Below are positions 8,767 through 39,090 of a stretch of 64,000 nucleotides of DNA, one piece after another (position 1 is the first letter of the stretch; each line of letters begins with the position of its first letter). Under the pieces are notes generated by a model. That model searched no databases, was not told the DNA's origin, and worked only from the letters and a program-made list of their open reading frames with translations. The DNA lies in assembly GCA_964476585.1 (NCBI GenBank), contig CAYZBF010000002.1, forward strand, positions 2,354 to 66,353, read 5' to 3'. The position numbers and the translations under genes are program-made. This DNA comes from an uncultured bacterium. GTDB lineage: Bacteria; Hydrothermota; UBA3072.

Positions 8767-8842
8767 AGGAATATGATAAAGAATTCACTTAATATGTCAA
8801 TGGGGATAGCTGCTCAATAGCTCTAAGCAAAACGAAAAAATT

Positions 8843-9030: not shown

Positions 9031-9124
9031 AAGAAGATACAAGAAAGCTTGTCAAAATGTTATTTATCAATAATATTTATTGTGAATTTCTGAATATAAT
9101 AGAAAGGAAAGGATACTACAGAAA

Positions 9125-9646
9125 ATGGATGATGATATCTTAATTGAAAAGTGTAAGAAGGGTAATATGGAAGCATATGGAGAATTAGTAAAAAGATACA
9201 TGAAAAAGGCTTATAATGTAGCTCTTTATTTCACAAGAGATCCAAATGATGCATGGGATATATCTCAAGAAGGGTTTTTGAATGCATGGAAGGCAATAAG
9301 GCGATTCAATACAAAAAAGGCATTCTTCCCGTGGTTGTACACAATAATAAAGAACGAATCAATGAAGAAATTTAGAAGAGAAAAAAGAAAAAATAGAGGA
9401 AATCCTATTCCAATAACTGTTATTGAATCACCACATAAGAGATTGGAGAAAATTGAAAGTATAGAAAGGCTTAAAAGAGCTATCTCACGGCTTGATAGAA
9501 AAAAGCAGGAAATAATATATATGAGACATTTTGCAAAGATGAGTTATAATGAAATTGCAGAATCACTGAATATTGCAAAAGGCACTGTAATGTCCCGCCT
9601 ATATTATGCAAGAAAAGCGCTTCTAGAGGAATACAGGAATGGCTGA
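9125..9646 (+). CDS. ECF-subfamily RNA polymerase sigma-70 factor
   Basis: Region 2 (YGELVKRYMKKAYNVALYFTRDPNDAWDISQEGFLNAWK) and region 4 HTH (SYNEIAESLNIAKGTVMSRLYYARKAL). Confidence 0.85.
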   Translation: MDDDILIEKCKKGNMEAYGELVKRYMKKAYNVALYFTRDPNDAWDISQEGFLNAWKAIRRFNTKKAFFPWLYTIIKNESMKKFRREKRKNRGNPIPITVIESPHKRLEKIESIERLKRAISRLDRKKQEIIYMRHFAKMSYNEIAESLNIAKGTVMSRLYYARKALLEEYRNG

Positions 9647-10079
9647 TTTAGATACCCTTATAAATAAGTACCTTGATAAAGAATTATCCAAAAAGGAAAA
9701 AGAAGAACTTCAGAATCGTGTCGAAAAAGACAAAAAATTAAAGAAAGAATTAAAGGAATTGGACGAAATGAGGGAGGTGATTTCAATGCTAAAACCAAAG
9801 GATCCGGATAAAGAATGGGAGAGATACTGGAGCAATCTTTATAATCGCCTTGAAAGAGGTATTGGCTGGATAATAACATCAATCGGAGCAATACTCTTGC
9901 TAACATTCGCTGGATTTCAACTAGTGAAGGAACTCATAAAAGACCCGGAACTCGCCCTTTATGCAAAGATTGGTATAATAGCGTTGATGATAGGTTTTGT
10001 AATCCTTTTTGTCTCTGTAGTGCGGGAAAGAATCTTTATGGGAAAATCGGATAAATATTCAAAGGAGGTAAAACGATGA
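9639..10079 (+). CDS. putative membrane-anchored anti-sigma factor
   Basis: Overlaps the sigma gene stop (ATGGCTGA). It has a charged N-terminal coiled region followed by two TM helices, which is the usual arrangement for an ECF partner. Confidence 0.5.
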   Translation: MADLDTLINKYLDKELSKKEKEELQNRVEKDKKLKKELKELDEMREVISMLKPKDPDKEWERYWSNLYNRLERGIGWIITSIGAILLLTFAGFQLVKELIKDPELALYAKIGIIALMIGFVILFVSVVRERIFMGKSDKYSKEVKR

Positions 10080-23112: not shown

Positions 23113-24291
23113 ATGACTCTGGATTATGTTTGGAAGGATGTCTTCCGGGGAGGCCGTTTAGGTTTTTCCCCAAAAAAGATTTGGGTTGCAGTAAAAGGAC
23201 TTCTCTATGGAATAACAGGTTATGCAGTTCTTACGTACCTCTCATTAATGGTATCAGGATGGCAGATACAGAAAATATGGCAGGAATTCAGGTATATCCC
23301 GTTTCCATTCTTCCAAGGAAACCTTATATGGTATGGGTGGATAATTTGGGCAGTGGCAGGTCTTTGGGCATTATACCACTATTTCGTGACTATGACTGCT
23401 ATCTCTAAAATAACATATGAGCAATTAAAAGGAGATGAATTCTACGAATCTAAAGAAGCCTGGAGATTTGCTCGCAAGAACTGGAAAGGGACCTTCCTTT
23501 CTCCCATATATATGGCTTTGTTTATTGCTGCCCTCATACTAACAGGTTTGATTATTGGTCTGGCGGGAAGAATACCACATGTAGGACAAATACTTATAGG
23601 ATTATCTGCAATTCCAGTTTTTGCCGGTGCATTATTCGTAACATACCTAACAATCGTCCTCGGGATCATCCTCATCAGTGCTCCTGCCATTGTAGCTACC
23701 ACAGAGAGTGATACCTTTGACACTCTATTTGAGGGATTTTCACTGCTTAATGATCAAACCTGGAGATATATACTCTGGGAAGTTATTCTCCTGATTACAG
23801 TTTTCATAGGCGTGTTCATCTTCGCCTGGCTTTTCAAGTATGCATTTTCCTTAACACACCATATACTTGGAGTCTGGGCTGGCCCAAGGGGGTGGTGGAA
23901 TGTAATGTGGCATAATGGTCACTGGTATCTGTATATTCCTTGGCTGCCAATCTGGATTGCAAAATGGTTCCCCACTTTCTTCGCACCGATGCATTTCATA
24001 TCTGCAGGAGCTGAAAGCCTTTCCGCTTATCCAGGGGCTACTACGACGTTCGGTGGCTTCCTTATGGGACTTTCCTTTTATATGGTAACATTCGTAATCC
24101 TCGGGTATGGTATATCCACTCATGCAGCAGGACATACTATAATATACACAATTCTCGTCAAAATAAAAGACGAAAAGGACTTATTGAAAAAAGAAGAAAA
24201 ATTATTTGGAGGTGAACTCGAGGAGGAAGAAGAAGAGGTAGAAAAGAAAGAAAAAGGGGAAGAAAAGGAAGAGAAAGAGAAGAAAAAATAG
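23113..24291 (+). CDS. polytopic (about 8 TM) Trp-rich membrane protein with E/K-rich low-complexity C-terminal tail
   Basis: Multiple hydrophobic helices; tail GELEEEEEEVEKKEKGEEKEEKEKKK; RBS AGGAGG upstream. Confidence 0.5.
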   Translation: MTLDYVWKDVFRGGRLGFSPKKIWVAVKGLLYGITGYAVLTYLSLMVSGWQIQKIWQEFRYIPFPFFQGNLIWYGWIIWAVAGLWALYHYFVTMTAISKITYEQLKGDEFYESKEAWRFARKNWKGTFLSPIYMALFIAALILTGLIIGLAGRIPHVGQILIGLSAIPVFAGALFVTYLTIVLGIILISAPAIVATTESDTFDTLFEGFSLLNDQTWRYILWEVILLITVFIGVFIFAWLFKYAFSLTHHILGVWAGPRGWWNVMWHNGHWYLYIPWLPIWIAKWFPTFFAPMHFISAGAESLSAYPGATTTFGGFLMGLSFYMVTFVILGYGISTHAAGHTIIYTILVKIKDEKDLLKKEEKLFGGELEEEEEEVEKKEKGEEKEEKEKKK

Positions 24292-24329
24292 AAGAATAAA
24301 TAAAAATCAATCATATATAATTTACTGTA

Positions 24330-24360
24330 AAAACGCCCTTTCCAAGAAAGGGCGTTTTTA
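24330..24360 (+). terminator. rho-independent terminator
   Basis: aaaaACGCCCTTTccaagAAAGGGCGTttttta: a 9-bp GC-containing stem followed by a T-run. Confidence 0.75.
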
Positions 24361-24606
24361 CAATAATATACATAGTGTCAATAAAACCTTGACTATTGAA
24401 AAAACTTTTGTAGATTATTACAAATATTAAAAGGGGATAGTTTATTAATTGCCACAAAGGTTTTACTCCAGCGTAAGATAAAGAATGTGATTGAAAGATA
24501 AAATGAATAATTCGGATGATAGATACAGTGTTGCACTTTACATTCTGAAACTTTCGTTCTTCAACACTCTTGACAATATCTCTGTGGCGAAAGAAGGGAG
24601 GTTTTA

Positions 24607-26640
24607 ATGAAGAAGATTGTATTCTTTTTCTTAATAGTAATTCTTCTTACAGAGAGCTGCCAGAGAGCAAAAAAATTCACTTACGAAGGGAGAAAAGGCG
24701 GAACTTTGATTATTTCCCTCTTAAATGAGCCCACTTCCCTTAATCCCCTTTATCCAGCATTTTCAGGTCTTTCACCAGTTATAAAAGAGTTGTTTAGTCC
24801 TCTACATGACTACAGTCCTAATGGCAAAATAAGAACTTGTTTAGCTCAATCATGGGTATATTCAGAGGATCTAAAATCTATCACATATACAATTCGCAAA
24901 GACGCTAAGTGGCATGACGGAATGCCAATAACCTCGGCGGATATTGTCTTTACCGTAAAAAAAATAATGGATCCCAAAAGCAATTCACCACTTTCTCAAA
25001 GATTACGATATATAAAAGATGTAAAAGTAATTGGAGAGAGGGAGGTTCGGTTTGTATTTGATAGAGTATATGCAGATGAATTACTCCATACCAACATATT
25101 AATTATCCCAAAGCACAAAATTGAGAAGGGTATAGAGAATCTACAGATGAGTGACTTTAGTTTCAATCCAATAGGAAATGGTCCATACAAACTTAAAGCA
25201 TGGAAGCAGGGAGAGTGGATCGAGTTAATTGCAAGTAATGACTATTCCCGAGGGCGGCCTCCTCTTGACAGAATAGTTTTCTACTTCCCATCATCAATGG
25301 AAAAATTATTATACGAAATCAACTTGGGAAATATTGACATAGCGTATGATCTACCCCCTGCGCAGTATAATGGTATAAAAGGGTATAAAACCATAGTGTC
25401 TCCAGCTAGAGCTTATACTTATATCGGGTGGAATCTTGAACGTTTTAAAGACAAAAATCTGAGAAAAGCTTTCAGTATGGCCACCGACCGCAGGGGTATT
25501 ATATCCTCAATACTCTTAGGTTATGGTCTCCTATTAAATGGCCCAATAACTCCTGAACACTGGGCATTTAATCCTAACATAAAAGGTATCGATTATAATA
25601 AGCAAAAAGCAAAGGAATTAATAGAGGAACTTGGATATTCAAAGAGAAGCTGGCAACAATATTATCCAGGCTTAAGCATTGAAATACTGGTAGAAAGTGG
25701 GAACCCCATTCGAAGAAAAGTAGCAGATTATGTTATGTCTGATTTAAAATCAATAGGGGTTAATACAACCATCATAGAACTTAGAGGATCACAACTGATA
25801 GATCGCTTATTCAAACACAACTTTGACGCATACATCCTTGGATGGAGTGTTGAGAAAGACTTTAATCCTCTTCCAATCTGGGGTTCTAAAGGAGTGCATA
25901 ATTTTGTAGGTTATAAAAATAAGAAAGCCGACGCTTTAATGCAGGAAGCACTCTTTTCCCTTGACAGAGAAAAGGCTAAAAAAGCTTGGAATGAATTTCA
26001 GGAAATCATCGCAGGAGATCTTCCTTACACTTTCCTTTACGCACCTCAGAAGATAACACTGGTCAAGAAAACTGTAGGAGGCATAAAATCTGATGATAAA
26101 AGACCTGTAATTTCATTCCTGGACGAATTATGGCTTAAGGAACCTAAAGCCACTCCCGTTGAACTAGCGGCACTTGGAAAACACTATGAAAAAACTCAAG
26201 AGAGTAGAGTACGAAGCAGTATAGAGACAACTCCCCCACAACCGCAGACATCGACGGAAGAAATATTAGAAGCAGCAACATCCACTACTGTCTTGGAAGA
26301 AGAGAAACCCTCCGAAGCGGTAACCGAGGAAGAACCTAAGCCTGTCGAAGAAAAAAAGGGTCCTATAATACCACCTATCCTAAGTTATTACCCTCATGAA
26401 AGGGATTATCCTGATAATGCAAAAAAATTGGATATACGTGGGCAGATCTTTATAAAAGTCCACATTACGAAAGAAGGCACTGTTGAAAAAGCGGAAATTG
26501 CAAAAGGACTATTCCCCTCTTGTGACTCCGTAGCTTTGCTGGATGCTTATAAATGTAGATTTGATCCTGCAAAACAGGATGGAGAACCTGTAGAATTCAT
26601 ACTGACCCTTCCCTTCCGTTTCCCGCCTGGAGGGTGGTAG
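24607..26640 (+). CDS. family-5 solute-binding protein (OppA/DppA-like) fused to a Pro/Glu-rich linker and a TonB C-terminal domain
   Basis: Signal peptide with lipobox-like LTESC. SBP_bac_5-type core up to approx residue 520. Linker TTPPQPQTSTEE...EPKPVEEKKGP. C-terminal YPDNAKKLDIRGQIFIKVHITKEGTVEKAEIAKG...LLDAYKCRFDPAKQDGEPV matches the TonB_C signature. Confidence 0.7.
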   Translation: MKKIVFFFLIVILLTESCQRAKKFTYEGRKGGTLIISLLNEPTSLNPLYPAFSGLSPVIKELFSPLHDYSPNGKIRTCLAQSWVYSEDLKSITYTIRKDAKWHDGMPITSADIVFTVKKIMDPKSNSPLSQRLRYIKDVKVIGEREVRFVFDRVYADELLHTNILIIPKHKIEKGIENLQMSDFSFNPIGNGPYKLKAWKQGEWIELIASNDYSRGRPPLDRIVFYFPSSMEKLLYEINLGNIDIAYDLPPAQYNGIKGYKTIVSPARAYTYIGWNLERFKDKNLRKAFSMATDRRGIISSILLGYGLLLNGPITPEHWAFNPNIKGIDYNKQKAKELIEELGYSKRSWQQYYPGLSIEILVESGNPIRRKVADYVMSDLKSIGVNTTIIELRGSQLIDRLFKHNFDAYILGWSVEKDFNPLPIWGSKGVHNFVGYKNKKADALMQEALFSLDREKAKKAWNEFQEIIAGDLPYTFLYAPQKITLVKKTVGGIKSDDKRPVISFLDELWLKEPKATPVELAALGKHYEKTQESRVRSSIETTPPQPQTSTEEILEAATSTTVLEEEKPSEAVTEEEPKPVEEKKGPIIPPILSYYPHERDYPDNAKKLDIRGQIFIKVHITKEGTVEKAEIAKGLFPSCDSVALLDAYKCRFDPAKQDGEPVEFILTLPFRFPPGGW

Positions 26641-26646
26641 ACTTCA

Positions 26647-27210
26647 ATGAATGTAAGGTTTATTGAAAAACGAACTATGATGGATGCGGAAGAGATGCGC
26701 TGGTCTTTACGACGTATTTCACATCAGGTTATTGAAAATAACCCTCGACTTAAAAAAATCTGCATAATTGGGATCCGGAAAAGAGGTGACATATTAGCCA
26801 AAAGAATCGCAATAACATTAGGCGAGCTAACTTCATGGGATATCAAAGTAGGGGTACTTGATATCACTCTTTACCGGGACGACCTCACAACTTACGGACC
26901 CAAACCACTGATTGGGCCCACACACTTCCCCTGCCACATTGATGACTTGCATGTCTTACTTGTTGATGATGTAATACACACAGGGAGAACAATCAGGGCT
27001 GCCCTTGATGAAATTGTGGATTATGGTCGTCCTTCTACAGTAAAACTCGCAGTTATGGTAAACAGGAGCGGCAGAGAATTACCCATAATGCCTGATTACT
27101 CTGGAACGTCAGTAAATCTCGCATCGGGAGAGGAAGTTAAAGTTAATCTTTTGGAAACAGACGGAGAGGACTCAGTCAAGATAGTAGAGGTAAGCATTGA
27201 TAATGAATAG
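26647..27210 (+). CDS. pyrR: pyrimidine operon regulator / uracil phosphoribosyltransferase PyrR
   Basis: PRTase motif LLVDDVIHTGRTIRAALD; size and N-terminal region typical of PyrR. Confidence 0.85.
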   Translation: MNVRFIEKRTMMDAEEMRWSLRRISHQVIENNPRLKKICIIGIRKRGDILAKRIAITLGELTSWDIKVGVLDITLYRDDLTTYGPKPLIGPTHFPCHIDDLHVLLVDDVIHTGRTIRAALDEIVDYGRPSTVKLAVMVNRSGRELPIMPDYSGTSVNLASGEEVKVNLLETDGEDSVKIVEVSIDNE

Positions 27211-28138
27211 GAAAGACCTTTTAGGAATAGAAGATTTAAGTAGAGAAGAAATTGAGGAGATCCTAAGTGTAGCAGAATCCATGGAGGAGATTTTAGAGCG
27301 ACCAATAAAAATTGCCCCTACCCTTCGCGGAATTACTGTAGCAAATCTGTTCTTTGAACCTAGCACCCGAACTCTGAATTCTTTCGCGCTTGCAGAAAAA
27401 AGGCTTTCGGCGGATTATATCAATCTATCAGCGTCTTCTTCAAGCATTCTTAAGGGAGAAACTTTGCTTGACACGGCAAAGAATATACAGGCAATGGAGG
27501 TAGATATAATAGTTATAAGACATTCTATACCTGGGGCTCCTCACTTTCTTGCAGAAAGATTAGATGCTTCAGTGATAAATGCAGGAGATGGTGCACATGA
27601 ACATCCAACGCAGGCCTTACTTGATCTTAATACAATAAGAAAAAAAATGTCAACATTTGACAATTTAAAAGTTGCTATCATAGGTGACATCGAACACTCC
27701 CGAGTTGCCCGCTCACTCATTCTTGGGCTAAACAAAATGGGAGCTAAAGCTCATATATGCGGCCCACCCACTTTAATACCAAAATGGATGGACACATTTG
27801 ATGTCACGATTAACTACAATTTGGAAGAAGTTTTGCCTGACAAGGATATCATATATATATTAAGACTACAGATGGAAAGGCAACATGAAAGTTTTATTCC
27901 ATCAATTAGAGAATACATAAAATACTACAGTCTAACCTACGAAAGGTTGAAGAAATATGCATCTCCAGAAGTTTTAATAATGCATGCAGGTCCTATAAAT
28001 AGAGGAATTGAGATTGAATCTCGGGTGGCAGACTCAGAATATTCACTTATTTTAGATCAAGTAATTTCTGGTGTGGCAGTCAGAATGAGTATTCTCTACC
28101 TCTTAAGCAGGCAAAAGACCAATGAAGATAGCAATTAA
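27197..28138 (+). CDS. pyrB: aspartate carbamoyltransferase catalytic subunit
   Basis: FFEPSTRTLNSF (STRT) and HPTQALLD motifs. Confidence 0.9.
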   Translation: MIMNRKDLLGIEDLSREEIEEILSVAESMEEILERPIKIAPTLRGITVANLFFEPSTRTLNSFALAEKRLSADYINLSASSSSILKGETLLDTAKNIQAMEVDIIVIRHSIPGAPHFLAERLDASVINAGDGAHEHPTQALLDLNTIRKKMSTFDNLKVAIIGDIEHSRVARSLILGLNKMGAKAHICGPPTLIPKWMDTFDVTINYNLEEVLPDKDIIYILRLQMERQHESFIPSIREYIKYYSLTYERLKKYASPEVLIMHAGPINRGIEIESRVADSEYSLILDQVISGVAVRMSILYLLSRQKTNEDSN

Positions 28139-29414
28139 AGAAGCTCATCTTTTTGACCCCAAAAACAATATAGACGAGATTGGCAACATCTACATTGAGA
28201 ATGGCAGAGTAGTAGATGATTCTTCCAGCAAATCTTCAGATATTGAGATTGATGCCAGCAGCCTTCATCTCATACCAGGTCTTGTAGATATCCATTCTCA
28301 CTTTAGGGAACCAGGCAACGAGGATGCTGAGACAATAGAAAGCGGGTCCAGAGCTGCCGTCAAGGGAGGATTCACCTCAGTTTGTGTGATGCCAAACACA
28401 GAGCCCCCTATTGATAATGAGGGTGTGGCAAGATTCATAAAAGAAAAATCCATAAAGAGTAATAAATGTCGCATTTTTCCAATCGGAACTATCACCAAAG
28501 GTAGAGAAGGTAAAGAACTAGCTGAAATGGGACATCTCCATGAGGCAGGCTGTGTAGCTTTCAGTGATGATGGAAACTGTGTCATGGACCCTAACGTGCT
28601 CAGAAGAGCCCTAGAATATTCACTTCTTTTAGATGTCCCAATTATAGAGCACCCCGAAGATATGTCATTATCTAAGGATGGCCAGATAAATGAGGGTGTA
28701 ATATCAACCAGACTCGGATTTAAGGGAATACCCGATATATCCGAGGCCTCCATCGTAGCAAGAGACATACTTCTTGCTAAGTTTACAGGTGGAAAACTTC
28801 ACTTAGCCCATGTGTCGTCGAAGGAGTCAATAGACATTTTAGAATATGGTAAGAATAAGGGGATAAAAGTTACAGCCGAAGTAACACCACATCATCTCCT
28901 TCTAACCGAAGAAGCAGTTTTGAGTTTTGACACCAATACTAAGATGAAACCACCACTTAGAACCAAATCGGATAGAGAAGCCCTTCAGAAAGCATTAAAA
29001 AATGGAATTATAGATGTGGTGGCCACAGACCATGCACCTCATCCTGATTATGCGAAAGAGCTTGAATACTCCCTCGCTCCTTTTGGTGTAATTGGTCTGG
29101 AAACTGCCTTTAGCGTTCTATACACCAAATTAGTTCTCCCGGGCAATCTAAGTTTGAAACAATTAATTCTCAGTATGACTGATAAGCCTGCCAAGATACT
29201 CCGTCTCCCAGTGGGAGAAATAAAGAAGGGAGGGATTGCGGATTTCACCCTAATTGATCTTAATGCCAAGTGGGAGGTAAATCCTGATAATTTTGAATCT
29301 AAATCATCAAATTCTCCTTTCATTGGGTGGAAATTAAAGGGAGTTGTAGATTCAACCATAGTAAATGGTACCGTAACTTTTAGAGGGGGTGAATTCGTAC
29401 AGGAGGGAGAGTGA
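28122..29414 (+). CDS. pyrC: dihydroorotase (amidohydrolase superfamily)
   Basis: VDIHSHFREPG and ATDHAPH metal-binding motifs. Confidence 0.85.
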   Translation: MKIAIKEAHLFDPKNNIDEIGNIYIENGRVVDDSSSKSSDIEIDASSLHLIPGLVDIHSHFREPGNEDAETIESGSRAAVKGGFTSVCVMPNTEPPIDNEGVARFIKEKSIKSNKCRIFPIGTITKGREGKELAEMGHLHEAGCVAFSDDGNCVMDPNVLRRALEYSLLLDVPIIEHPEDMSLSKDGQINEGVISTRLGFKGIPDISEASIVARDILLAKFTGGKLHLAHVSSKESIDILEYGKNKGIKVTAEVTPHHLLLTEEAVLSFDTNTKMKPPLRTKSDREALQKALKNGIIDVVATDHAPHPDYAKELEYSLAPFGVIGLETAFSVLYTKLVLPGNLSLKQLILSMTDKPAKILRLPVGEIKKGGIADFTLIDLNAKWEVNPDNFESKSSNSPFIGWKLKGVVDSTIVNGTVTFRGGEFVQEGE

Positions 29415-31927
29415 CTAATTCATTTGATATATACGATCTTGAGGCAGCTTCCTTACTGGGAAGTAAATTCCTACTATCTTTAGAAGAAGGGGTTGGGAAA
29501 AGAGAAATCTATGAAAAATCCAAACAGACACTTTCTCGTTACTTTGAGTTGAGAGCTTTGGATACAAAAACTCTAGAATTTTTCAGCAGGCATAAAAGCA
29601 AATTTATCGTAGAACTGAATAATAAGGAAAGAGCATACCTGCGAGATATGTTCACACGACTATCAGAGGATAAGGTAAATAGAGAGGATATCCAATTCCT
29701 CAAAACCCTATCAGAAAATGTCATCGACAAGGAAATTCATTATTTCCCCTTACTTTTATCTCTAATACTGAAAACTTACCCCCGGGAATTAACTAAGGGA
29801 ACAAAAGACTCATTTAAGGTAGGTAAAAGGCTATCTAAGTTACTACAGGACATACTGAAGGGTAAAGAACTGGATAACCTCACCAAGGTGTTTCTGAAAG
29901 AACCTATTCCAATCGGCCTTCCACATATTAACACCTCACTAGAAGACTTACACAAATTTCTTACCCCCTATGGTTTTACTCCAGCTCTGTTCTCTAATAT
30001 CCATAGTATACTAATAAAAAACTTTACACAAAGAGAAAGTAGTGATATAGTTTCCCTGCTTAAAAATACAGATATATCGAGTATAGACGATCTGCGCAAC
30101 TTTCCTTTCCATGATTTCTTTAGGCCTGAGGATGAGACACTCGCAAGAATTTCAAGAATAGTTTCTGATAAAGCTTCTAAAGTGAAGCAGATATTAGTCC
30201 AAAAGGATATAGAACTTGACAGAAAGGATTTAAAGGTCCGTGAAGAAACTCACCAGCTCCTGCGGAGAAACGTAGAAAATTTACAATCTCTTATAGATGT
30301 AGCGAAGCGTGACCTTCAGGCAATGTTGAGTAAAACTCAGGAACAATTTACAGCATTGGAGAAAGCCCTGAAACTACATATAAGACATGTTCAAGCTCAT
30401 GAGAACGCTTCCATATCTTTAAAAAAAGCTATTGATGAGAATAAAGCACTACTCAATATAAGTATAGAGGATATAAAGTCATTATTTCCACCTCCTCCTC
30501 TCTGGGATATAGAATGTTTAGTTAAGGAATTCTGGCACGAATTACCTTATATCGAAATCATTGACCCTTCCTGCGAAAAACGAATAATTAAGCTTCTCAA
30601 GAGGGAAGAAAAGATAGCATCTGATAAAAAAGTATTTTTACAACTTTCGAATAGGGAGAAAAGCGGATTCATTCCTGATACAGAAAGAGTAATCTCAAAC
30701 TATTGTAATGTATTTAAAGAAATACTTGAGCCTTTACTCATCCGTGAGGTAATAAATCGTATGATTGAAATCTGGCCGCCCAATGTAGATTTCGAAAATC
30801 CTAAATCAAGAATTATTGCAACCAAAAAGATACACCTTGCAGGACTCAATCTACTACCAAGTGGACATTTTTATAGATTCGGGAGTAGAGGTAAAATAGA
30901 ACCCATTGTTGATAAAAAGCTTCTCAAAAAAAGAGAGCTTATATCAACCGCTCTAAGAAAGCGATTCTCAACCCTTGTTTCGGTGTTAGTCTATGACATT
31001 CGTGGATCAAGCTTTATGGCGCATCGCTTACGGAATGCTAAGAAGGAAAGAGCAATACGCAACAAGTTCCAATCCACCATGCTTGATGCTGCAATGAGAG
31101 GATCATCCTTTATATTAAAGGATACTGGCGATGGAGGAATCTTGTGGTTTGGAGGTAACTCTAAAAAGCACTACAGGAATATGTATAAGTGTCGTGAATG
31201 TAAATCGGGAGGTATCCTTCGTTCCTCCACTGCCTTTGAGGACGAATTCACATTATCCCCCCATCCAAAGAGTGCAGAGATGGCCATTAGAACCGCATTA
31301 AATCTAGTTCAAACTGCAGAGGAATTTGTAAGAGAAAATTATATGAACTACAGGGATTGGTTTGAAGAAATAACAGAGAAAGAAATTTTTCACGATGGAA
31401 TAACTTATGCCTTACTACCCCCAAAGTTCAAATCATTATTCAGACTTGGTATAGGGATAGCAAGCGGACAACCCATCAAGGATATTATATTCTCACCGAA
31501 CGCCTTTGGAGATCCGGATCTTACAGGCATCATCATTGACGAATCTGCTCTGTTTTCATCCGGAAAGAGCCCTGAACGTTCAGTAATATTAATAGACCAC
31601 TGCACACTAATAAATCTGCTTCTCAACTCAGATCAATATTTTTTAACTGAACTTCTAACCAGGGAAGATTCTGACGAGGCAGTTATCAACAAGCTCCTTA
31701 CTATTCTTAAAAGAGAAGAAACTGAACAGGAATTCATATTCGAGGATTTCACTATATCACCAGTGGGGCTCTATTATATCGATCACAAGGATAAAAATAA
31801 GAGGATAGAGTTCAAACTCTGGAAGAATTTAAAATTAGAATTCAATGATAGAGGAGAGTTATCTTGTAAGAGAGGCCGGGTGAAGATACTATATGAGGTC
31901 TCGGGTAAGGAAAAGAATGAAAAATAG
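29411..31927 (+). CDS. large protein with an N-terminal helical region (no homology recognised) and a C-terminal class-III nucleotidyl-cyclase-like (CHD-like) domain
   Basis: GTG start overlapping the pyrC stop (GTGA). VSVLVYDIRGSSF resembles the FxDIxGFT motif, and ILKDTGDGGILWFGG resembles K-x-GD metal-Asp motif 2. Confidence 0.45.
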   Translation: MTNSFDIYDLEAASLLGSKFLLSLEEGVGKREIYEKSKQTLSRYFELRALDTKTLEFFSRHKSKFIVELNNKERAYLRDMFTRLSEDKVNREDIQFLKTLSENVIDKEIHYFPLLLSLILKTYPRELTKGTKDSFKVGKRLSKLLQDILKGKELDNLTKVFLKEPIPIGLPHINTSLEDLHKFLTPYGFTPALFSNIHSILIKNFTQRESSDIVSLLKNTDISSIDDLRNFPFHDFFRPEDETLARISRIVSDKASKVKQILVQKDIELDRKDLKVREETHQLLRRNVENLQSLIDVAKRDLQAMLSKTQEQFTALEKALKLHIRHVQAHENASISLKKAIDENKALLNISIEDIKSLFPPPPLWDIECLVKEFWHELPYIEIIDPSCEKRIIKLLKREEKIASDKKVFLQLSNREKSGFIPDTERVISNYCNVFKEILEPLLIREVINRMIEIWPPNVDFENPKSRIIATKKIHLAGLNLLPSGHFYRFGSRGKIEPIVDKKLLKKRELISTALRKRFSTLVSVLVYDIRGSSFMAHRLRNAKKERAIRNKFQSTMLDAAMRGSSFILKDTGDGGILWFGGNSKKHYRNMYKCRECKSGGILRSSTAFEDEFTLSPHPKSAEMAIRTALNLVQTAEEFVRENYMNYRDWFEEITEKEIFHDGITYALLPPKFKSLFRLGIGIASGQPIKDIIFSPNAFGDPDLTGIIIDESALFSSGKSPERSVILIDHCTLINLLLNSDQYFLTELLTREDSDEAVINKLLTILKREETEQEFIFEDFTISPVGLYYIDHKDKNKRIEFKLWKNLKLEFNDRGELSCKRGRVKILYEVSGKEKNEK

Positions 31928-33464
31928 AATGTACGAATTCGAGGAAACAATAAAAGCAATTAACTCTAAAGAATTAAATATTGGCGAAGTTCTTAGCTTA
32001 ATAATGAAAATCATATCACGCTCGATTAATGCTAAAGCCTGGTCTCTTTTACTGCTGGATGAAAGAAGTAAAGAACTTGTCTTTGAAGAAGTTATTGGAG
32101 AAAAAAGTGAAGAATTAACCGGGAAAAGGATGCCTATGGATAAAGGGATAGTGGGCTGGGCAATAGAAAACGAGAAATCAGTAATTGTCTCGGACCCATA
32201 TAATGATGAGAGATTCTTTAAGGATATTGATAAAGACACAGGCTTTAAGACAGAATGTATTCTGGCAGTTCCTCTAATCAGTAAGGGACGTATTCTTGGA
32301 ATTATTGAGGCAATAAATAAAACAGATGGAACGAGTTTCAATGAGAATGATTTACAATTAGTAAATAATTATGCTGAACATGCAGCTATTGCTCTCGAAA
32401 ATGCAAATCTTGTACAGAGTTTACAAAGCAAAGTGAGATATCTAACACTCATTTCTGATATTAATAAAAATATAACCTCGATACTGGATCTTGAAATGCT
32501 TCTTAAGAAGAGTGCACAATTAATCCAGAAGACATTTGATTACTATTATACCGCTATAGGACTCTTTGAAGATGACAGGATTACACTCAAGGGATTCTCT
32601 TCCTCTGAAAACATTAAACCTGTCCGCACTATTATAAAAAAAGGTGAAGGACTTGTAGGGAAGGTTATAAAGAATAAGGAAAGAATTATAGTACCAGATA
32701 CTGAGAAAGATTCTAATTACTTTGAAGGGATTAAAGGGATAAAAAGCGAAATGGTAATCCCGATTAAAAGAGAGAGCGGTTTCTTAGGAATTATTGATAT
32801 TGGTTCACCGGAGAAATATGTATTCTCAATAGAGGAAGCAAACATCATAAGTGAAGTATCATACCAATTAGCAACTGCTGTGGAGAACGCAAAACTTTAC
32901 CAGGAAATCAGGCTTGCATCAATCACAGATGATATCACAGGTTTATATAATTCAAGGTATTGCAATGAAAAACTCCCTGATATTGTTAACAGATGGCACA
33001 CTGCTGAAAAAGTAGGTTCTTTAATATTCATGGATATTGATCATTTTAAAAATGTTAACGATTCTTACAATCATCTGATTGGAAGCAAATTATTGCATTT
33101 AGTGGGAAGAAGGATAAAGGATATCTTAGATGAAGCTAAAATAGGAATCAGATATGGTGGTGATGAATATATAATTGTTATGGAGGGTCTGGGATTAGAA
33201 GAAGCAATTGCTTTTACTAAAGAAATAAAAAATTTAATTTCGTCAAAGCCATATATAATTAGGGATAATTCTAATAAAATTGAATGTTGGGTTAAAGCCA
33301 GCTTTGGGATAGCGAGTTTCCCAGACGTAACAACTAATTCTCAGGAATTACTCCGTCTTGCCGACCTTGCGATGTACTATGTAAAATCCAATGGAAGGGA
33401 TAATATAGCCTATATGGACAGAAAAGCTGATATTAAGCTACTTAATGAGCAAACAAATTCTTGA
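31893..33464 (+). CDS. GAF-GAF-GGDEF domain protein (GGDEY variant), putative diguanylate cyclase
   Basis: Two GAF-like regions. GGDEF domain with DIDHFKNVND and RYGGDEYIIV. The likely true start is at 31917 or 31929 (MKNRMYEF / MYEF). Confidence 0.8.
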   Translation: MRSRVRKRMKNRMYEFEETIKAINSKELNIGEVLSLIMKIISRSINAKAWSLLLLDERSKELVFEEVIGEKSEELTGKRMPMDKGIVGWAIENEKSVIVSDPYNDERFFKDIDKDTGFKTECILAVPLISKGRILGIIEAINKTDGTSFNENDLQLVNNYAEHAAIALENANLVQSLQSKVRYLTLISDINKNITSILDLEMLLKKSAQLIQKTFDYYYTAIGLFEDDRITLKGFSSSENIKPVRTIIKKGEGLVGKVIKNKERIIVPDTEKDSNYFEGIKGIKSEMVIPIKRESGFLGIIDIGSPEKYVFSIEEANIISEVSYQLATAVENAKLYQEIRLASITDDITGLYNSRYCNEKLPDIVNRWHTAEKVGSLIFMDIDHFKNVNDSYNHLIGSKLLHLVGRRIKDILDEAKIGIRYGGDEYIIVMEGLGLEEAIAFTKEIKNLISSKPYIIRDNSNKIECWVKASFGIASFPDVTTNSQELLRLADLAMYYVKSNGRDNIAYMDRKADIKLLNEQTNS

Positions 33465-35013
33465 AATCTATCCTGACTTAAAATATCCTGTAACACTGGC
33501 AAAGATAGACAATCAATATGCCTCACTGGAAGAAAAAGTCCCCCTCGGTGGAAAGATTGAAATTCTGGATGTCAACAATACAGAGGGTAGAAGAACCTAT
33601 GAAAGAACCCTTGTGTTTCTCCTTGATTATATAGCAAAGAGAAAAGGAGTAACTATTAAGATAGAACATTCTTATGGAGACGCTTTATATTGCAGGTTTT
33701 TGAAGGGTTCATTAAATCTAAATACTACAAAAAAAGAAATAATCGATTTGATCAAGGCAAATAAAAAAATAGAACGCTTAATGTTACCAAAATTAGAGGC
33801 TACACATTTCTTAGAGGAAAGGGAAGACGACCTGAACATTTTAAAACACCTCTCTCGAACTTATATTCCAGTATATAAACTTGACGATTTCGCAGCATAT
33901 TATGCAGGTCCATTATTGCCCAAGACCGGATTCTTATCAATATTTGACCTGATAAAGATTGCGGATGGATTCCTGGTCATCCTTCCAACACAAGAGGATC
34001 CCTCCACTTTAGGCAAAATTGAAGGAGGGGAGCAACTATTTAAAACATATAAAGAAGCAAGGAGGGAAGCGGAGATCCTAAAAGTATGGGATGTAGCACG
34101 TTTGAATGAATATGTCGTCTCTGGTGCAATATCGGAAATAGTAAAGACAGCCGAAGCAATCCACACCGAGAAAATAACGGAGATATGTAAGGAAATATTG
34201 AGTGGTAGAGAAAGAACGAAGATGATACTTATATCGGGTCCTTCATCTTCTGGAAAAACTACATTTTCAAAAAGGTTAGGAGTACATCTCCGCATACACG
34301 GCATTACTCCTCTTTATATATCTCTTGATAATTATTTTCTAGAGAGAAAGAAAACACCATTATACATAGATGGCACTCCCTTTTTTGACACCTTTGAAGC
34401 ACTAGATGTAAAGCTGTTTGGAGAACATATTTCACAGATTCTTTCAGGAAAGGAAGTAAAAGAATTAACCTTCAATTTTAAAAAGGGAAGGAAGGAATGG
34501 TTTGGCAAGACATACAAACTAACGCCTAAAACAATCCCTGTGATTGAAGGAATACATGCTTTTAATCCGGGACTTTTAAAAGATATGGAAATAAGTACTT
34601 TTCTTATCTATGTCAGTGCCCTTACTCAATTAAATATTAATAGGGTGAACCGCATACCTACTCGTGATGTTCGACTTCTCCGTAGAATTTTCAGAGATAC
34701 ACGTTTCAGGGGCCATTCAGCCGATCAGACCCTAAAGCAATGGGCTTCTGTAAAAGAAGGGGAAGAGAAATTTATTTTTCCATATCAGGAAAGAGCAGAT
34801 ATTATGTTTAACTCCTCTCTAGTATATGAACTTGCAGTTTTAAAAAGCTTCCTTGAAACGCCCCTCCGTTGCGTCGACACCACTTCCCCTTATTACTGCG
34901 AAGCACTGCGATTATTGAATTTCCTGGATCATTTTCTCGGTATAAGAGAGGATGAAATTCCCCCAACTTCAATCCTGCGCGAATTTATCGGTGGAAGTAC
35001 CTTTTACTATTGA
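33445..35013 (+). CDS. uridine kinase/phosphoribulokinase-family P-loop nucleoside kinase with a ~230-aa N-terminal extension
   Basis: ISGPSSSGKTTFSKRL Walker A; Udk-like core over residues ~250-480. Overlaps the upstream gene by 20 nt. Confidence 0.65.
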   Translation: MSKQILEIYPDLKYPVTLAKIDNQYASLEEKVPLGGKIEILDVNNTEGRRTYERTLVFLLDYIAKRKGVTIKIEHSYGDALYCRFLKGSLNLNTTKKEIIDLIKANKKIERLMLPKLEATHFLEEREDDLNILKHLSRTYIPVYKLDDFAAYYAGPLLPKTGFLSIFDLIKIADGFLVILPTQEDPSTLGKIEGGEQLFKTYKEARREAEILKVWDVARLNEYVVSGAISEIVKTAEAIHTEKITEICKEILSGRERTKMILISGPSSSGKTTFSKRLGVHLRIHGITPLYISLDNYFLERKKTPLYIDGTPFFDTFEALDVKLFGEHISQILSGKEVKELTFNFKKGRKEWFGKTYKLTPKTIPVIEGIHAFNPGLLKDMEISTFLIYVSALTQLNINRVNRIPTRDVRLLRRIFRDTRFRGHSADQTLKQWASVKEGEEKFIFPYQERADIMFNSSLVYELAVLKSFLETPLRCVDTTSPYYCEALRLLNFLDHFLGIREDEIPPTSILREFIGGSTFYY

Positions 35014-35131: not shown

Positions 35132-36085
35132 TTGAGTCTTGACTTATCCTCTTATATTCATATAATCTATTGCATGATGAGGATTTTAAGAATTTCACTT
35201 AGCTTTTTCATACCATTTTTCTTATTCTCACAAGAGCTGGGTTGGAAGAAGGGAGACATTGCTATTGTTCAGTGGGAAAAAACGCCTTTCCAGGACGGAA
35301 TAAGAGACAGCATAATAGATGTGCTACCTGTAGAGATTGACGAATATCAATTAAAAGGAAAGGTGGAAAAAATATATGGGATCTTTGGCAATATATCTAA
35401 AAAGAATTACCGTCTGGTTGTAATGATTGGAGCCCAGATTGTCACACCAATCCTGCAATATCTACCTGAAACTCCGATAATCATCATAGGTGCATCAATA
35501 GATCTTGATAGGATCCATAAAAAATTCCATAACATTACAGGTATATATTCCTTTACCTCACCAACGGTCCAGCTTTACAATATATTGCAACTGGTAAAGG
35601 ACGTTAAGAAGATAGGGGTAATATACAATCCCCTACACTCAAGTGTAGAAGTAGGAATGCTTGAGAGGGCAATCACTGATACTACCATTAGTCTTATTAA
35701 GAATGGGGTTTCCAATTCAAATGAGATAGCAACAGCATTACATTTTATTAAGGATATTGATCTCTTATGGATACCGACTGATCCTATATATAGAGATAGG
35801 AAAGCAATCAAGAATATGATGGACTATTCCTTAAAAAACAATATCCCGGTATTTTCACCATCAATTGAGTTTGTTCGGAAGGGAGCACTTGCTTCCCAGT
35901 TACCTTCAGACGTTTCACTTGAAATCTTATCCATCATTTCATCTTTAGAAAAAGGCAAAAACATACAAGAAGTACATCCACGATTTCCTTCAGAGAGTCT
36001 TATTCTAAACAAAAAGACGGCTGAGCTTTTAGGTATAGAGATACCTGAGAGACTCCTATTAACTGCTGAAGAAGTGTATGAGTAA
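35132..36085 (+). CDS. orphan periplasmic binding protein of the ABC_sub_bind (PF04392-like) family
   Basis: Signal peptide, then KKIGVIYNP...IDLLWIPTDP...NIPVFSPSIEFVRKGALAS, as is typical of this sensor-associated SBP family. No permease or ATPase gene is adjacent. Confidence 0.6.
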   Translation: MSLDLSSYIHIIYCMMRILRISLSFFIPFFLFSQELGWKKGDIAIVQWEKTPFQDGIRDSIIDVLPVEIDEYQLKGKVEKIYGIFGNISKKNYRLVVMIGAQIVTPILQYLPETPIIIIGASIDLDRIHKKFHNITGIYSFTSPTVQLYNILQLVKDVKKIGVIYNPLHSSVEVGMLERAITDTTISLIKNGVSNSNEIATALHFIKDIDLLWIPTDPIYRDRKAIKNMMDYSLKNNIPVFSPSIEFVRKGALASQLPSDVSLEILSIISSLEKGKNIQEVHPRFPSESLILNKKTAELLGIEIPERLLLTAEEVYE

Positions 36086-36241
36086 ATGAATTGATGGTTT
36101 GTAAGTAAATGAGTATAAGGGTCAAAGGTTAGAAAGTTGTAATTTTTAAGTTGGATTTGGGTTATTGGGTTTCAGGTCTTGAGAGTTTTGAGGATGGGAA
36201 ATGAAGAGAGGAAATCGAATTTCCTTAAAAGGAGGCTCTAA

Positions 36242-37897
36242 ATGATAAAATCAAACACTTTGAAAGGCAGAATATCCATCCTGATGGTAAGCAGCTTAAT
36301 AGGCATAACTGTCCTAATTGGAGTTATATCATTTTTCTCCACACGTTCCAACTTCAGAACGCTCTTGGAAGAAAGAGCAGCTGCTATAATTCAGGCAATA
36401 GGCCCTACACTGGAACTTGGTCTATACGCAGAAAATCTTGCACTCTTAGAACCTCCAATTAAAGGCCTTTTTGGTCAAGAAGATATTATATATAGCTCTG
36501 CATATAACCTTTCGGGAATTAATCTAATTCAAAAGAGTGAAATCGATTTTGATCTTGAATTAAGTAAAGAACTTTTAGAAAGAGTTAAACAGGGAGAATT
36601 TATTAGCCAATTAAGGAAAGTAAAGGGGCAATCATTCCTTGATTGCCTAGGTCCCATCTATCCTCTGGAGATTACAGGCAAAAAACAACCAATTGGAATA
36701 TTAAGAATTGGAATATCTCTAAAGGCCATATCCTCCGCTATGCAAAGATTGACCTTAATTCTGGGCATCTCACTTATTGCTGCATTAGTATTAGCAAGTT
36801 TAGCAACAACCCGATCCCTTATCATACTCTTCAGGCCTCTTTATGATTTAAAGGAAAGATTGAAACAAATATCTGAAGGTACCGTAGACCTCAAGGTCCG
36901 ATTATCTGAAAATACATTGACTACTGAGACCGATGAACTTGCATCCTCGTTTAATAGATTTGTTCAAACCCTACAAAAAAACAAAGAATTTACCCAAGAT
37001 GTCTCAGAACGAATGTCAGCTCAAGCAGAAGAACTATCAGCCTCAGCAGAGCAAATGAGTGCCTCATATGAAGAGATTTCCTCCACTATGCAACAGGTAG
37101 CTCTATCTTCTGACAAACAAGCAGCAGAATCACAAACTGCCTCCGAGATGGCACGGAAAGCGCTCCATGTCGTTCATCAATCATTTGATAGTGCACAGGA
37201 GACACTAAAATCCTCAGATACTATCTCTCTATTATCACAGAAAGGAGGGGAATCAGCAAAAGAAGTGCGATTAGCCATGGATAACGTAACCAACATTATA
37301 TATGAATTAGAGGATGTCACTCAACAAATCCAGAAACGCTCGGAAGAGATATCTGGCATTACAGAAACAGTGGGCGAGATTAGTAAGAGAACCAACGTGC
37401 TATCTCTTAATGCCACAATTGAAGCTTCAAAGGCAGGAGAAACTGGAAAGGGCTTTGCTGTGGTTGCAGAAGAAATCAGAAAACTGGCAACCCAATCTTC
37501 CGAATCAGCTAGAAAGATCTCTGAGATATTGGGTGAGGTCACCGGCGTGATAGATTCGTTAATTATGAAAACAGAGGAAACAATTGAAGAAGTGAAAAAA
37601 GGGAAGGAGATCTCATTAAAGTCAGCAGATTTCTTAAAGAATATTGCAGGCGAGATAAGCCATGTAACAAAGAGAATCAAGGAAATAACAATAATCAACA
37701 AACAAGGAGAAGAAGAGGTCAACACTATAACCGAAGCTATTGAAAATATTGCAGCTATCGCAGAAGAGAATGCTGCTTCATCAGAAGAAATTTCAGCGGC
37801 AATCCAGCAATTGTCAGCTTCTATTCAAGAATTATCAGCAACCTCCCAAGAGACTGCTCAGATAGCTGAAAAACTTTATAAATTGACAAGCAACTAA
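36242..37897 (+). CDS. methyl-accepting chemotaxis protein (2 TM, periplasmic sensor, HAMP, MCP signalling domain)
   Basis: Highly conserved MCP signalling core ATIEASKAGETGKGFAVVAEEIRKLA. Confidence 0.85.
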   Translation: MIKSNTLKGRISILMVSSLIGITVLIGVISFFSTRSNFRTLLEERAAAIIQAIGPTLELGLYAENLALLEPPIKGLFGQEDIIYSSAYNLSGINLIQKSEIDFDLELSKELLERVKQGEFISQLRKVKGQSFLDCLGPIYPLEITGKKQPIGILRIGISLKAISSAMQRLTLILGISLIAALVLASLATTRSLIILFRPLYDLKERLKQISEGTVDLKVRLSENTLTTETDELASSFNRFVQTLQKNKEFTQDVSERMSAQAEELSASAEQMSASYEEISSTMQQVALSSDKQAAESQTASEMARKALHVVHQSFDSAQETLKSSDTISLLSQKGGESAKEVRLAMDNVTNIIYELEDVTQQIQKRSEEISGITETVGEISKRTNVLSLNATIEASKAGETGKGFAVVAEEIRKLATQSSESARKISEILGEVTGVIDSLIMKTEETIEEVKKGKEISLKSADFLKNIAGEISHVTKRIKEITIINKQGEEEVNTITEAIENIAAIAEENAASSEEISAAIQQLSASIQELSATSQETAQIAEKLYKLTSN

Positions 37898-39090
37898 TGA
37901 ATAACTTAATTGGTCTAGTATATGTTTTACTTTCAAGCCTCACTCTCTACCTAATATCCTTACCATTACTAAAACGGCTAAAAGGGGGAAGGCGAGAAAT
38001 AATAAAATATTCACTATTCCCACTCTTTGTCATTTTGTTCAGTTACCTATTCAGTAATTTAGGATTATTCAACCCTGCCTATAGAGGAGTCCTTGCCTTT
38101 TTCTCTTCATATTTATTCATCTTTCTTTTTCTGCTCTCGATAATGATCAACATTCGGGGAGGAAAAATTACCTGGTTAAATATCCTTGTTATTGGATCTC
38201 TCATCCTCATCATTGCTCTCCTGCATAAACTCGGGGTAATTACACCAGTATTTCTTTTCCTTAAAAAGCCAATAGTAAGTATTGGAAGCACTCAAATAAG
38301 TTTAATAGATATATTTCTCGCAACTATAATATTCTACTTATCGATTAGATACTCCCAGAATGTAAGAGAGTTGCTGGAGAAAAGATTAAGGAGATTTCCG
38401 GCTATGGACTTAGGAAGAATCCATATCTTTTCTATGATAGTTAGATATGGAATTATTGTTGTTGGAATATTCATAGCATTATCCATTGTCGGTATAGACC
38501 TTACCACCCTTAAGGTTTTAATAGGTGCGCTCGGAGTTGGTATAGGATTTGGATTACAGCACATGGTAAACAACCTGCTAAGCGGTTTTATCATCCTCTC
38601 CGATAAATCCATAGTGGTGAATGATTTGATAGAGGTGGATGGGTTACTCGGATGGGTTGAGGCTGTAGGGCTCCGAGCAACTATAATAAGAACCTTCAAC
38701 AATGTAGAAGTAATAGTTCCAAATGCAGAGCTTGTTTATAATAAAGTAACCAATTACACCCATTCAGATAATCTAATTAGAATTGATATTCCTGTTGGTG
38801 TTTCCTACACTTCTGACCCAAACAGAGTAAAAGAAGTGCTGATTGAAGCACTTTCTCCATTAAAAGAAAGAGTGGAAAAATCTTCCATTGACGTTTATTT
38901 CAATGATTTTGGAGAGAGTTCACTTGACTTCATCGCGTTTATATGGACTGACCAACCTCTTAAGAAAAAGAAGATTGAGAGTGATGCCCGATTTGCTATA
39001 TGGAAGGCATTAAAGGAAAACAACGTTGAAATCCCATTTCCTCAACAGGATATTCATATCAGAGATAGTAAATCAGAAATTAATTCATAA
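37897..39090 (+). CDS. MscS-family mechanosensitive channel
   Basis: Multiple N-terminal TM helices; conserved MscS beta-domain region GLRATIIRTFNNVEVIVPNAEL. 1-nt TAATG overlap with the MCP gene. Confidence 0.85.
   Translation: MNNLIGLVYVLLSSLTLYLISLPLLKRLKGGRREIIKYSLFPLFVILFSYLFSNLGLFNPAYRGVLAFFSSYLFIFLFLLSIMINIRGGKITWLNILVIGSLILIIALLHKLGVITPVFLFLKKPIVSIGSTQISLIDIFLATIIFYLSIRYSQNVRELLEKRLRRFPAMDLGRIHIFSMIVRYGIIVVGIFIALSIVGIDLTTLKVLIGALGVGIGFGLQHMVNNLLSGFIILSDKSIVVNDLIEVDGLLGWVEAVGLRATIIRTFNNVEVIVPNAELVYNKVTNYTHSDNLIRIDIPVGVSYTSDPNRVKEVLIEALSPLKERVEKSSIDVYFNDFGESSLDFIAFIWTDQPLKKKKIESDARFAIWKALKENNVEIPFPQQDIHIRDSKSEINS

Follow-up and report, generated by a model that had tools for sequence, protein, structure and literature searches.

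A cryptic cyclase-like protein and a Hypr-type GGDEF enzyme are encoded directly behind pyrRBC in an uncultured Hydrothermota bacterium

We analyzed seven closely packed plus-strand genes at positions 24607–35013 of a 64,000-nucleotide (nt) stretch of DNA (hereafter the window) from an uncultured bacterium (GTDB lineage Hydrothermota; UBA3072; contig CAYZBF010000002.1 of assembly GCA_964476585.1). In this predicted operon, the pyrimidine genes pyrR, pyrB, and pyrC (pyrRBC) are followed by a gene for a protein of 838 amino acids (aa), a gene for a GAF-GAF-GGDEF enzyme, and a kinase gene. The C-terminal domain of the 838-aa protein is predicted to adopt the fold of class III nucleotidyl cyclases, and the adjoining enzyme combines a GAF domain of the type that binds cyclic nucleotides with a GGDEF domain carrying the Hypr signature. 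Our preferred reading, to which we assign a probability of about 0.5, is a relay in which cyclic AMP (cAMP) would act through a GAF domain on cyclic dinucleotide synthesis and which would be co-expressed with pyrRBC. An original prediction, made from the letters of the window alone, had called the same seven genes; all of its gene calls and coordinates were reproduced using the list of open reading frames (ORFs), Pfam, and NCBIfam. The junctions between successive genes range from +6 to −35 nt:

24607–26640, plus strand: gene 1, the SBP/TonB_C gene, with SBP_bac_5 at residues 75–416 and TonB_C at residues 599–672 (Pfam, E = 9e-73 and 1.6e-12).
26647–27210, plus strand: gene 2, pyrR, starting +6 nt after the SBP/TonB_C gene (NCBIfam NF003549; score 195.9 bits, cut-off 138).
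27197–28138, plus strand: gene 3, pyrB, with a −14 nt junction with pyrR (NCBIfam NF002032; score 382 bits, cut-off 263).
28122–29414, plus strand: gene 4, pyrC, with a −17 nt junction with pyrB (TIGR00857; score 421 bits, cut-off 279).
29411–31927, plus strand: gene 5, the 838-aa ORF, with a −4 nt junction with pyrC.
29411–30931, plus strand: N-terminal ~507 residues of gene 5, all-helical with a long coiled coil.
30932–31927, plus strand: residues 508–838 of gene 5, a predicted, cryptic class III cyclase-homology domain.
31893–33464, plus strand: gene 6, the GAF-GAF-GGDEF gene, with a −35 to +1 nt junction with the 838-aa ORF (Pfam, two GAF domains and GGDEF).
33445–35013, plus strand: gene 7, a 522-aa kinase, with a −20 nt junction with the GAF-GAF-GGDEF gene (Pfam PRK, E 6e-18).

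The 838-aa protein belongs to a small family. A word-seeded search of 5.8 billion proteins returned only nine relatives of it at 55% identity or more, and an exhaustive hidden Markov model (HMM) search of 1.84 billion cluster representatives resolved the family into 49 clusters. The closest public genomes were metagenome-assembled genomes from Candidatus Stahlbacteria, WOR-3, and TA06. Searching the protein with Pfam, NCBIfam, and PADLOC produced no cyclase match, and Pfam returned nothing relevant for 35 diverse members of the family, with no Guanylate_cyc match at E ≤ 0.01. The conserved core of the family lies at residues ~517–745. A full-length AlphaFold model, built with nine close homologs, was unusable (pLDDT 44) and showed helices only at the N-terminus. 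By contrast, residues 508–838 modeled from a 41-sequence alignment of that region (alignment A2) gave a pLDDT of 86.3 and a pTM of 0.87. When we used this model as a Foldseek query, the matches listed were all class III adenylyl or guanylyl cyclases, with a probability of 1.00. Profile comparison with the PDB pointed the same way: the A2 profile matched Pseudomonas aeruginosa CyaB (E 8.5e-6), and a profile from which two family-specific insertions had been removed (A4) matched CyaB at E 4e-7 and more than 20 other class III cyclases, with near whole-domain alignment. Judged from the profiles and the model, residues 508–838 have a class III cyclase fold (palm-type, with class III topology). The class III cyclase-like motifs reported in the original prediction were thus borne out by profile and fold comparison, not by library HMMs.

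The two insertions, of ~35–40 residues each (~582–620 and ~643–675), contain conserved motifs specific to the family (YRDWF and YALLPP) as well as the conserved residues Arg604 and Arg648, and the domain ends in a C-terminal helix and a β-hairpin. The N-terminal ~500 residues, with a coiled coil at ~241–348, diverge fastest among relatives; full-length profiles compared with the PDB gave only generic coiled-coil matches for this part. The helical N-terminus is presumed to serve dimerization and sensing.

The metal-binding aspartates of class III cyclases occupy β1 and the β2–β3 turn. Aligned to CyaB, they correspond to Asp529 and Asp574, each of which is kept in 40 out of 41 family members. 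The residue pair that specifies the purine is Lys/Asp in enzymes that use ATP and Glu/Cys in those that use GTP. The family has Lys570 (40/41) and Asp703 (41/41) at these positions. In the guanylyl cyclase Cya2, the residue aligned with Lys570 is a Glu, which is a Lys in the version of Cya2 engineered into an adenylyl cyclase; in RhGC with converted specificity (5oyh), K and D line up with Lys570 and Asp703. By alignment, Lys570/Asp703 is an ATP-type pair. On β4, the protein has Arg678, at a position that is R, Q, or K in the family. Compared with the class III adenylyl cyclases P. aeruginosa CyaB (3r5g) and Spirulina CyaC (1wc0), the 838-aa protein differs in lacking a Pfam Guanylate_cyc match and the Asn/Arg pair of helix α4, and in having the two insertions and an unrelated helical N-terminus of ~500 residues.

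The product of the neighboring gene consists of GAF-A (residues 28–169), GAF-B (~200–335), and a GGDEF domain (344–503). The best PDB match of the GGDEF domain was the Geobacter Hypr enzyme GacA (6d9m, E 2.6e-25). Published work describes Ser348 as the signature difference of Hypr GGDEFs (Hallberg et al., PMC6456294), finds that natural enzymes with Ser or Thr at position 348 carry GGDE[F/Y] exclusively, and reports that Hypr enzymes have another residue in place of the conserved cross-dimer Arg (PMC6456294). In the enzyme studied here, Ser398 (‘IGS’) aligns with GacA Ser348 (‘VGS’) where canonical enzymes in the same search output read ‘IGD’, the signature motif is GGDEY (residues 422–426), and Ser354 stands in place of the cross-dimer Arg found in the ‘NRR’ motif (‘NSRY’, compared with ‘NYRY’ in GacA). 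The RxxD I-site is absent. At the sequence level, the GGDEF domain has all three published Hypr features. Because the Hypr signature is present and the best solved relative is GacA, the predicted product is 3′,3′-cGAMP (cyclic GMP-AMP) or mixed cyclic dinucleotides, not simply cyclic di-GMP (c-di-GMP). The original prediction was right to see a second-messenger enzyme of the GGDEF class here, but these residues predict more than the plain c-di-GMP product that it named. GGDEY together with a non-Arg cross-dimer residue (S, A, or Y) was found in 24 out of 24 orthologs, and the base-reading Ser in the 16 Stahlbacteria-like orthologs.

GAF-A matched best, among PDB entries, the GAF domain of Lcd1 (5W10, E 4.7e-26; entry described in PMC11800159), followed by PDE2A, PDE5, PDE6, PDE10, and Anabaena CyaB2. 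GAF-B instead matched GAF domains that do not bind cyclic nucleoside monophosphates (cNMPs). The single GAF domain of the Edwardsbacteria ortholog aligns to GAF-A, with 42% identity. GAF-A is, by these matches, of the cAMP/cGMP-binding type, and ligand binding is predicted. Lcd1 of Leptospira is a cAMP-dependent diguanylate cyclase (PMC8846402), and in GacB, a GAF-Hypr-GGDEF protein, cAMP binds the GAF domain and activates the enzyme with a half-maximal effective concentration of ~79 nM (Wright et al., bioRxiv 10.1101/600031).

The enzyme resembles Myxococcus xanthus GacB, a cAMP-activated GMP-AMP cyclase, in its GAF-GGDEF architecture with a cNMP-type GAF domain ahead of the catalytic domain, in the Ser at the base-reading position, in GGDE[F/Y], and in the non-Arg cross-dimer residue. 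It differs from GacB in that its GAF domains number two, its signature motif is GGDEY instead of GGDEF, and it lacks an RxxD I-site, whereas GacB is subject to inhibition by c-di-GMP. Moreover, its source is a candidate phylum that lies outside the Deltaproteobacteria, and it is encoded in an apparent operon with a dedicated cyclase-like gene and pyrRBC. Leptospira interrogans Lcd1 provides the closest solved relative of GAF-A and the same logic, in which a GAF domain controls a GGDEF domain. Lcd1 is described as a diguanylate cyclase; our enzyme has the Hypr Ser, and the likeness of the GAF domains is one of overall sequence match.

In the relay that we propose, the 838-aa cyclase-like protein would make a cyclic mononucleotide, most probably cAMP, which would bind GAF-A of the neighboring enzyme and cause it to start making a cyclic dinucleotide (cGAMP and/or c-di-GMP). 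By analogy, the relay would work in the way that has been demonstrated for GacB of Myxococcus and Lcd1 of Leptospira. pyrRBC would be translationally coupled to this two-gene second-messenger module, with a housekeeping nucleoside kinase after it.

We then used tblastn and the geometry of ORFs to compare 38 related loci (L001–L038), three of which had been located by exact-protein look-ups and the other 35 in a single scan of species-representative genomes. The gene order and tight junctions recurred in ~20 related loci, in which the 838-aa protein had 37–78% identity, and for this reason the arrangement appears to be more than chance. In 31 WOR-3/TA06/Stahlbacteria loci, pyrR-pyrB-pyrC was followed by an 838-aa homolog, and in 29 out of these 31 the distance between the pyrC stop codon and the start of the 838-aa gene was −62 to +9 nt. 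The adjacency of pyrC and the 838-aa gene reached into a deep branch (L026–L037), with 27–41% identity for the 838-aa protein and ~41% for PyrC. In 24 loci, spread over Stahlbacteria/WOR-3, Cloacimonadota, and Edwardsbacteria, the next gene after the 838-aa gene was a GAF(-GAF)-GGDEF gene, with a junction of −92 to +7 nt. These 24 loci included six from Cloacimonadota and one from Edwardsbacteria without pyr genes nearby, whose flanks differ: the upstream neighbor is a PmbA/TldD or creatininase gene, and downstream there is a gene for a Ser/Thr kinase or a DUF2007 protein. The kinase gene followed only in a Stahlbacteria-like subgroup and in L017, and the SBP-TonB_C gene stood directly before pyrR only in L001–L006, L014, and L017, not in the other pyrR-containing loci.

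Two units are thus conserved: pyrRBC with the 838-aa gene (phylum-wide) and the 838-aa gene with the GAF-GGDEF gene (cross-phylum). The original prediction had raised the possibility that the cyclase-like, GGDEF, and kinase genes travel together as a trio; synteny supports the pyrC–838-aa and 838-aa–GAF-GGDEF pairs instead. It had also held that a missing cyclase fold or an arrangement absent from relatives would count against it; we found the predicted fold to be present and the arrangement to recur.

The two exceptions to a tight pyrC–838-aa junction were L012, with an apparent frameshift, and L017, with an inserted PmbA/TldD-like gene. The L012 copy (5581–8075) is split by an apparent frameshift or an assembly error. 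In L017, a gene for a PmbA/TldD-family metallopeptidase (8674–10002) separates pyrC from the 838-aa gene, its junctions being overlaps, and a second, partial copy of the 838-aa family (25–930, 37% identity, residues 423–748) is present at the contig edge. A PmbA/TldD gene also lies directly upstream of the 838-aa homolog in four Cloacimonadota loci (L021, 8142–9488; L022–L024). PmbA/TldD is a third recurrent neighbor of the 838-aa family.

A terminator scan and promoter consensus matches gave the following features around the seven genes:

24322–24366, no strand assigned: terminator-like hairpin, palindromic and GC-rich with A/T runs on both sides; 20-bp stem with 7 GC pairs.
24367–24606, plus strand: leader/promoter region of 240 nt, with only weak sigma-70-like matches (e.g., 24389–24418).
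35139–35166, plus strand: strong sigma-70-like promoter match, TTGACT-16-TATAAT (11/12 match), after a 118-nt gap behind the kinase gene.

The hairpin was the sole strong terminator-like site; it terminates the upstream 392-aa gene and is the 5′ boundary of the unit. No plus-strand terminator was found inside 24607–35013, which agrees with the original prediction that the only obvious terminator is upstream. The promoter match at 35139–35166 is likely the start of the next, separate unit and hence marks the 3′ boundary. Internal promoter consensus matches numbered 69, compared with 55.6 ± 8.2 expected, and are uninformative in AT-rich DNA (the GC content of the window is ~38%). The GTG start codon of the 838-aa ORF shares bases with the TGA stop codon of pyrC (GTGA), with a GGAGG 5–6 nt upstream. 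Other in-frame ATG codons for the GAF-GAF-GGDEF gene are at 31917 and 31929, and the junction remains at −35 to +1 nt throughout. The layout fits co-transcription, as originally suggested: no terminator was found inside the block, and each reading frame overlaps or adjoins the next.

PyrR scored above the NCBIfam equivalog cut-off as a bifunctional pyr regulator/uracil phosphoribosyltransferase, and the same library identified PyrB as the catalytic subunit of aspartate carbamoyltransferase and PyrC as dihydroorotase. The domain content assigned to the other genes in the original prediction (SBP_bac_5, TonB_C, PyrR, PyrB, PyrC, two GAF domains, GGDEF, and PRK/Udk) was confirmed by HMM searches. 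A PyrR-binding attenuator was not found in the leader (24367–24606): Rfam gave none at the gathering threshold or at E ≤ 5, and a search with the PyrR-box consensus found no site there. The consensus search returned 22 matches compared with 13.9 expected. The sole exact match, ATCCAGAGAGGT at 56891–56902, was judged to be due to chance, as it falls within a coding ORF (56655–57473) and not in a leader. The first three pyr genes resemble a Bacillus-type pyrR-pyrB-pyrC operon controlled by PyrR attenuation in their identity, order, and overlapping frames. They differ from it in that no PyrR-binding RNA element is detectable, pyrR lies 6 nt behind the SBP-TonB_C gene, and pyrC is followed by signaling genes rather than carAB/pyrKDFE.

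With a shared transcript, the dosage of the second-messenger module would track the control of pyrimidine synthesis, and because the module would share this transcript with pyrRBC, cyclic dinucleotide output would be tied to nucleotide supply. A link of this kind has a parallel in Escherichia coli, where, as summarized in PMC8956108 (citing Rossi 2017), pyrimidine intermediates modulate a diguanylate cyclase. In that summary, DgcQ is modulated by N-carbamoyl-aspartate, so that the status of the pyrimidine pathway likewise feeds into cyclic dinucleotide synthesis; coupling in E. coli is by metabolite sensing without genetic linkage, whereas here the genes share an apparent operon. Our literature search for a cyclase linked to a pyr operon found no report.

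Several observations weigh against the proposed relay. The cyclase domain is recognized by none of the HMM libraries that we tried; since no library model recognizes it, a check limited to such libraries would have wrongly dismissed the cyclase call. At the α4 position usually occupied by Asn, the protein has Asp710 (R in 16, N in 14, D in five, S in four, H in one, and A in one of the 41 family members), and at the α4 Arg position it has Leu714, which is replaced only by other hydrophobic residues and never by Arg in all 41. Because these transition-state residues are missing, catalysis is uncertain; going by the alignment, activity may be weak or may use residues from the insertions. There is no GAF-GGDEF gene beside the 838-aa gene in L003, L006, or the deep WOR-3 branch (L026–L037), and the pairing of the two genes is thus frequent, not obligatory. 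Eight loci (L016, L021–L025, L030, and L038, including those from Cloacimonadota and Edwardsbacteria) have Gly (‘IGG’) together with GGDEY, and the Hypr assignment, made from aligned residues, is limited to the Stahlbacteria-like subgroup. We infer that the seven genes form one operon, with co-transcription read from gene geometry. Control by pyrimidines is assumed, since the leader shows no PyrR attenuator.

With the α4 Asn/Arg pair missing, a serious, if unlikely, rival is that the 838-aa protein is a pseudo-cyclase sensor. Its domain would bind a nucleoside triphosphate (NTP; ATP, going by the Lys/Asp pair) without cyclizing it, and the protein would report the NTP level or a cue received by its N-terminus, controlling the GAF-GGDEF enzyme or other targets by protein–protein contact. 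The poorly conserved α4 Asn, the absence of the α4 Arg from 41 out of 41 sequences, and the large insertions in the cyclase domain are as expected for such a sensor, as is the persistence of the family in many WOR-3 genomes where no GAF-GGDEF gene adjoins it. However, retention of both metal-binding aspartates in 40 out of 41 sequences alongside the base-specifying pair is the pattern expected of a working active site, and a cNMP-type GAF domain in the neighboring enzyme fits a diffusible cNMP better than direct contact.

The same unusual α4 helix and insertions leave room for altered chemistry, and the gene has genes for pyrimidine synthesis ahead of it and for salvage behind it. Both points are in keeping with a product suggested in the original prediction, a cyclic pyrimidine. 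In that scheme, the 838-aa protein would convert UTP or CTP into cUMP or cCMP as a housekeeping signal linked to the pyr operon. We found no positive sequence support for this product and consider it very improbable. Adenylyl and guanylyl cyclases outscored PycC enzymes; PADLOC gave no PycC match at E ≤ 0.1 beyond noise; the Lys/Asp pair is that of ATP enzymes and is unlike the specificity sets of BcPycC (Y50/D94/R97) and EaPycC (F100/R142/Q144) (PMC11224242); and the partner GAF-A domain is most like cAMP/cGMP binders, and the partner is not a CNBD-TIR or CNBD-TM effector. The 838-aa protein does share with Pycsar PycC a class III-like fold and the metal-binding Asp dyad (PMC11224242). It differs from PycC in having no HMM match and other specificity residues, and its locus differs from Pycsar loci in having no CNBD-TIR or CNBD-TM effector gene and in a chromosomal housekeeping context rather than a defense island. 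A reading of the locus as a defense system (Pycsar or CBASS-like) was ruled out: PADLOC gave no hits, and the locus is flanked by housekeeping genes such as those for PBP1, CoaE, MscS, and YchF.

A further rival concerns the link to pyrimidine synthesis rather than the chemistry. The signaling genes might be historical hitch-hikers, co-transcribed passengers that lineage inertia has kept behind pyrRBC with no physiological tie. This is a real possibility, although we regard it as unlikely to be the full account. It accords with the occurrence of the cyclase/GAF-GGDEF pair without pyr genes in Cloacimonadota and Edwardsbacteria, with the generic housekeeping nature of the kinase, with the leader, in which no PyrR-binding element was found, and with the origin of all pyr-linked loci from one phylum-level lineage. 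Gene order at such divergence is rarely kept without selection, however, and here the pyrC–838-aa junction stays tight in 29 out of 31 loci while PyrC drops to 41% and the 838-aa protein to 27% identity. The outer neighbors (SBP-TonB_C, GGDEF, and kinase genes) are meanwhile present or absent.

A broader version of the preferred relay would make the 838-aa proteins a WOR-3-wide, hitherto unrecognized family of class III cyclases, translationally coupled to pyrC, that transmits nucleotide status, possibly by way of an unusual product driving non-canonical GGDEF enzymes. We consider this version rather improbable. In it, the N-terminus or the altered active site would respond to metabolites of the pyrimidine pathway; the product could be unusual because the Asn/Arg pair is missing and the insertions are conserved; and the Ser- or Gly-type GGDEF enzymes would make cGAMP or another dinucleotide that is not c-di-GMP. 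If true, it would constitute a housekeeping, non-defense relay from pyrimidine supply to cNMP to cyclic dinucleotide in candidate phyla.

Class III cyclases and the cAMP–GAF–Hypr-GGDEF relay are both known kinds of system. Three things are new: a cyclase family that lacks annotation, the pairing of this family with non-canonical GGDEY enzymes across phyla, and its phylum-wide coupling to pyrC. The family falls into an annotation blind spot, as signaling censuses based on Pfam, NCBIfam, or PADLOC would miss it in its candidate phyla. A predicted cAMP-type cyclase adjoining a Hypr-type GGDEF enzyme with a cNMP-type GAF domain would form a natural writer–reader pair; earlier, activation of a Hypr GGDEF enzyme by cAMP came from the biochemistry of Myxococcus GacB, for which no cognate cyclase was identified. 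If the proposed relay is correct, GGDEF-based cGAMP signaling extends to the WOR-3/Stahlbacteria lineage. The Gly-348 GGDEY enzymes of Cloacimonadota and Edwardsbacteria are a GGDEF specificity variant for which we found no description in the Hypr GGDEF papers that we consulted. The conserved coupling to pyrC offers a concrete system for examining how nucleotide metabolism feeds second-messenger decisions.

The last gene of the unit encodes a protein with a PRK domain at residues 261–457, with the P-loop GPSSSGKTT at 265–273. It scored 83 bits against NCBIfam udk, below the cut-off of 220, and matched uridine kinases in the PDB at E ~1e-6. No domain was assigned to its N-terminal ~240 residues. 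We found at least 8000 homologs, including full-length Clostridia proteins that NCBI names ‘nucleoside kinase’, with 40–43% identity. The protein is a long-form ‘nucleoside kinase’ of the uridine kinase/PRK family, a widespread housekeeping enzyme, and plausibly serves pyrimidine salvage, in keeping with the pyr theme. A role as a signaling component was rejected as the default, given the very large housekeeping family and the inconsistent linkage of the gene to the locus.

At the other end of the unit, gene 1 encodes a secreted SBP_bac_5 solute-binding protein with a C-terminal TonB_C domain, a fusion that looks unusual. The window is ordinary chromosome, with flanks that include genes for PBP1, OmpA-like, CoaE, MscS, YchF, and C25 peptidase proteins. 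Upstream of the hairpin, the 392-aa ORF (23113–24291) has a Lys/Glu-rich C-terminus and no Pfam or NCBIfam match, and homologs with 76–82% identity occupy the same upstream position in the loci L001, L004, L005, and L014. The next plus-strand block (35132–39090) encodes an ABC_sub_bind periplasmic binding protein, a HAMP-MCP chemoreceptor, and an MscS-family channel; ABC_sub_bind and MCP genes are also found downstream in L003, L004, and L006. Further downstream, at 39877–43350, lies a gene unrelated to the operon that encodes a 1157-aa gingipain-like Peptidase_C25 protein with a propeptide domain.

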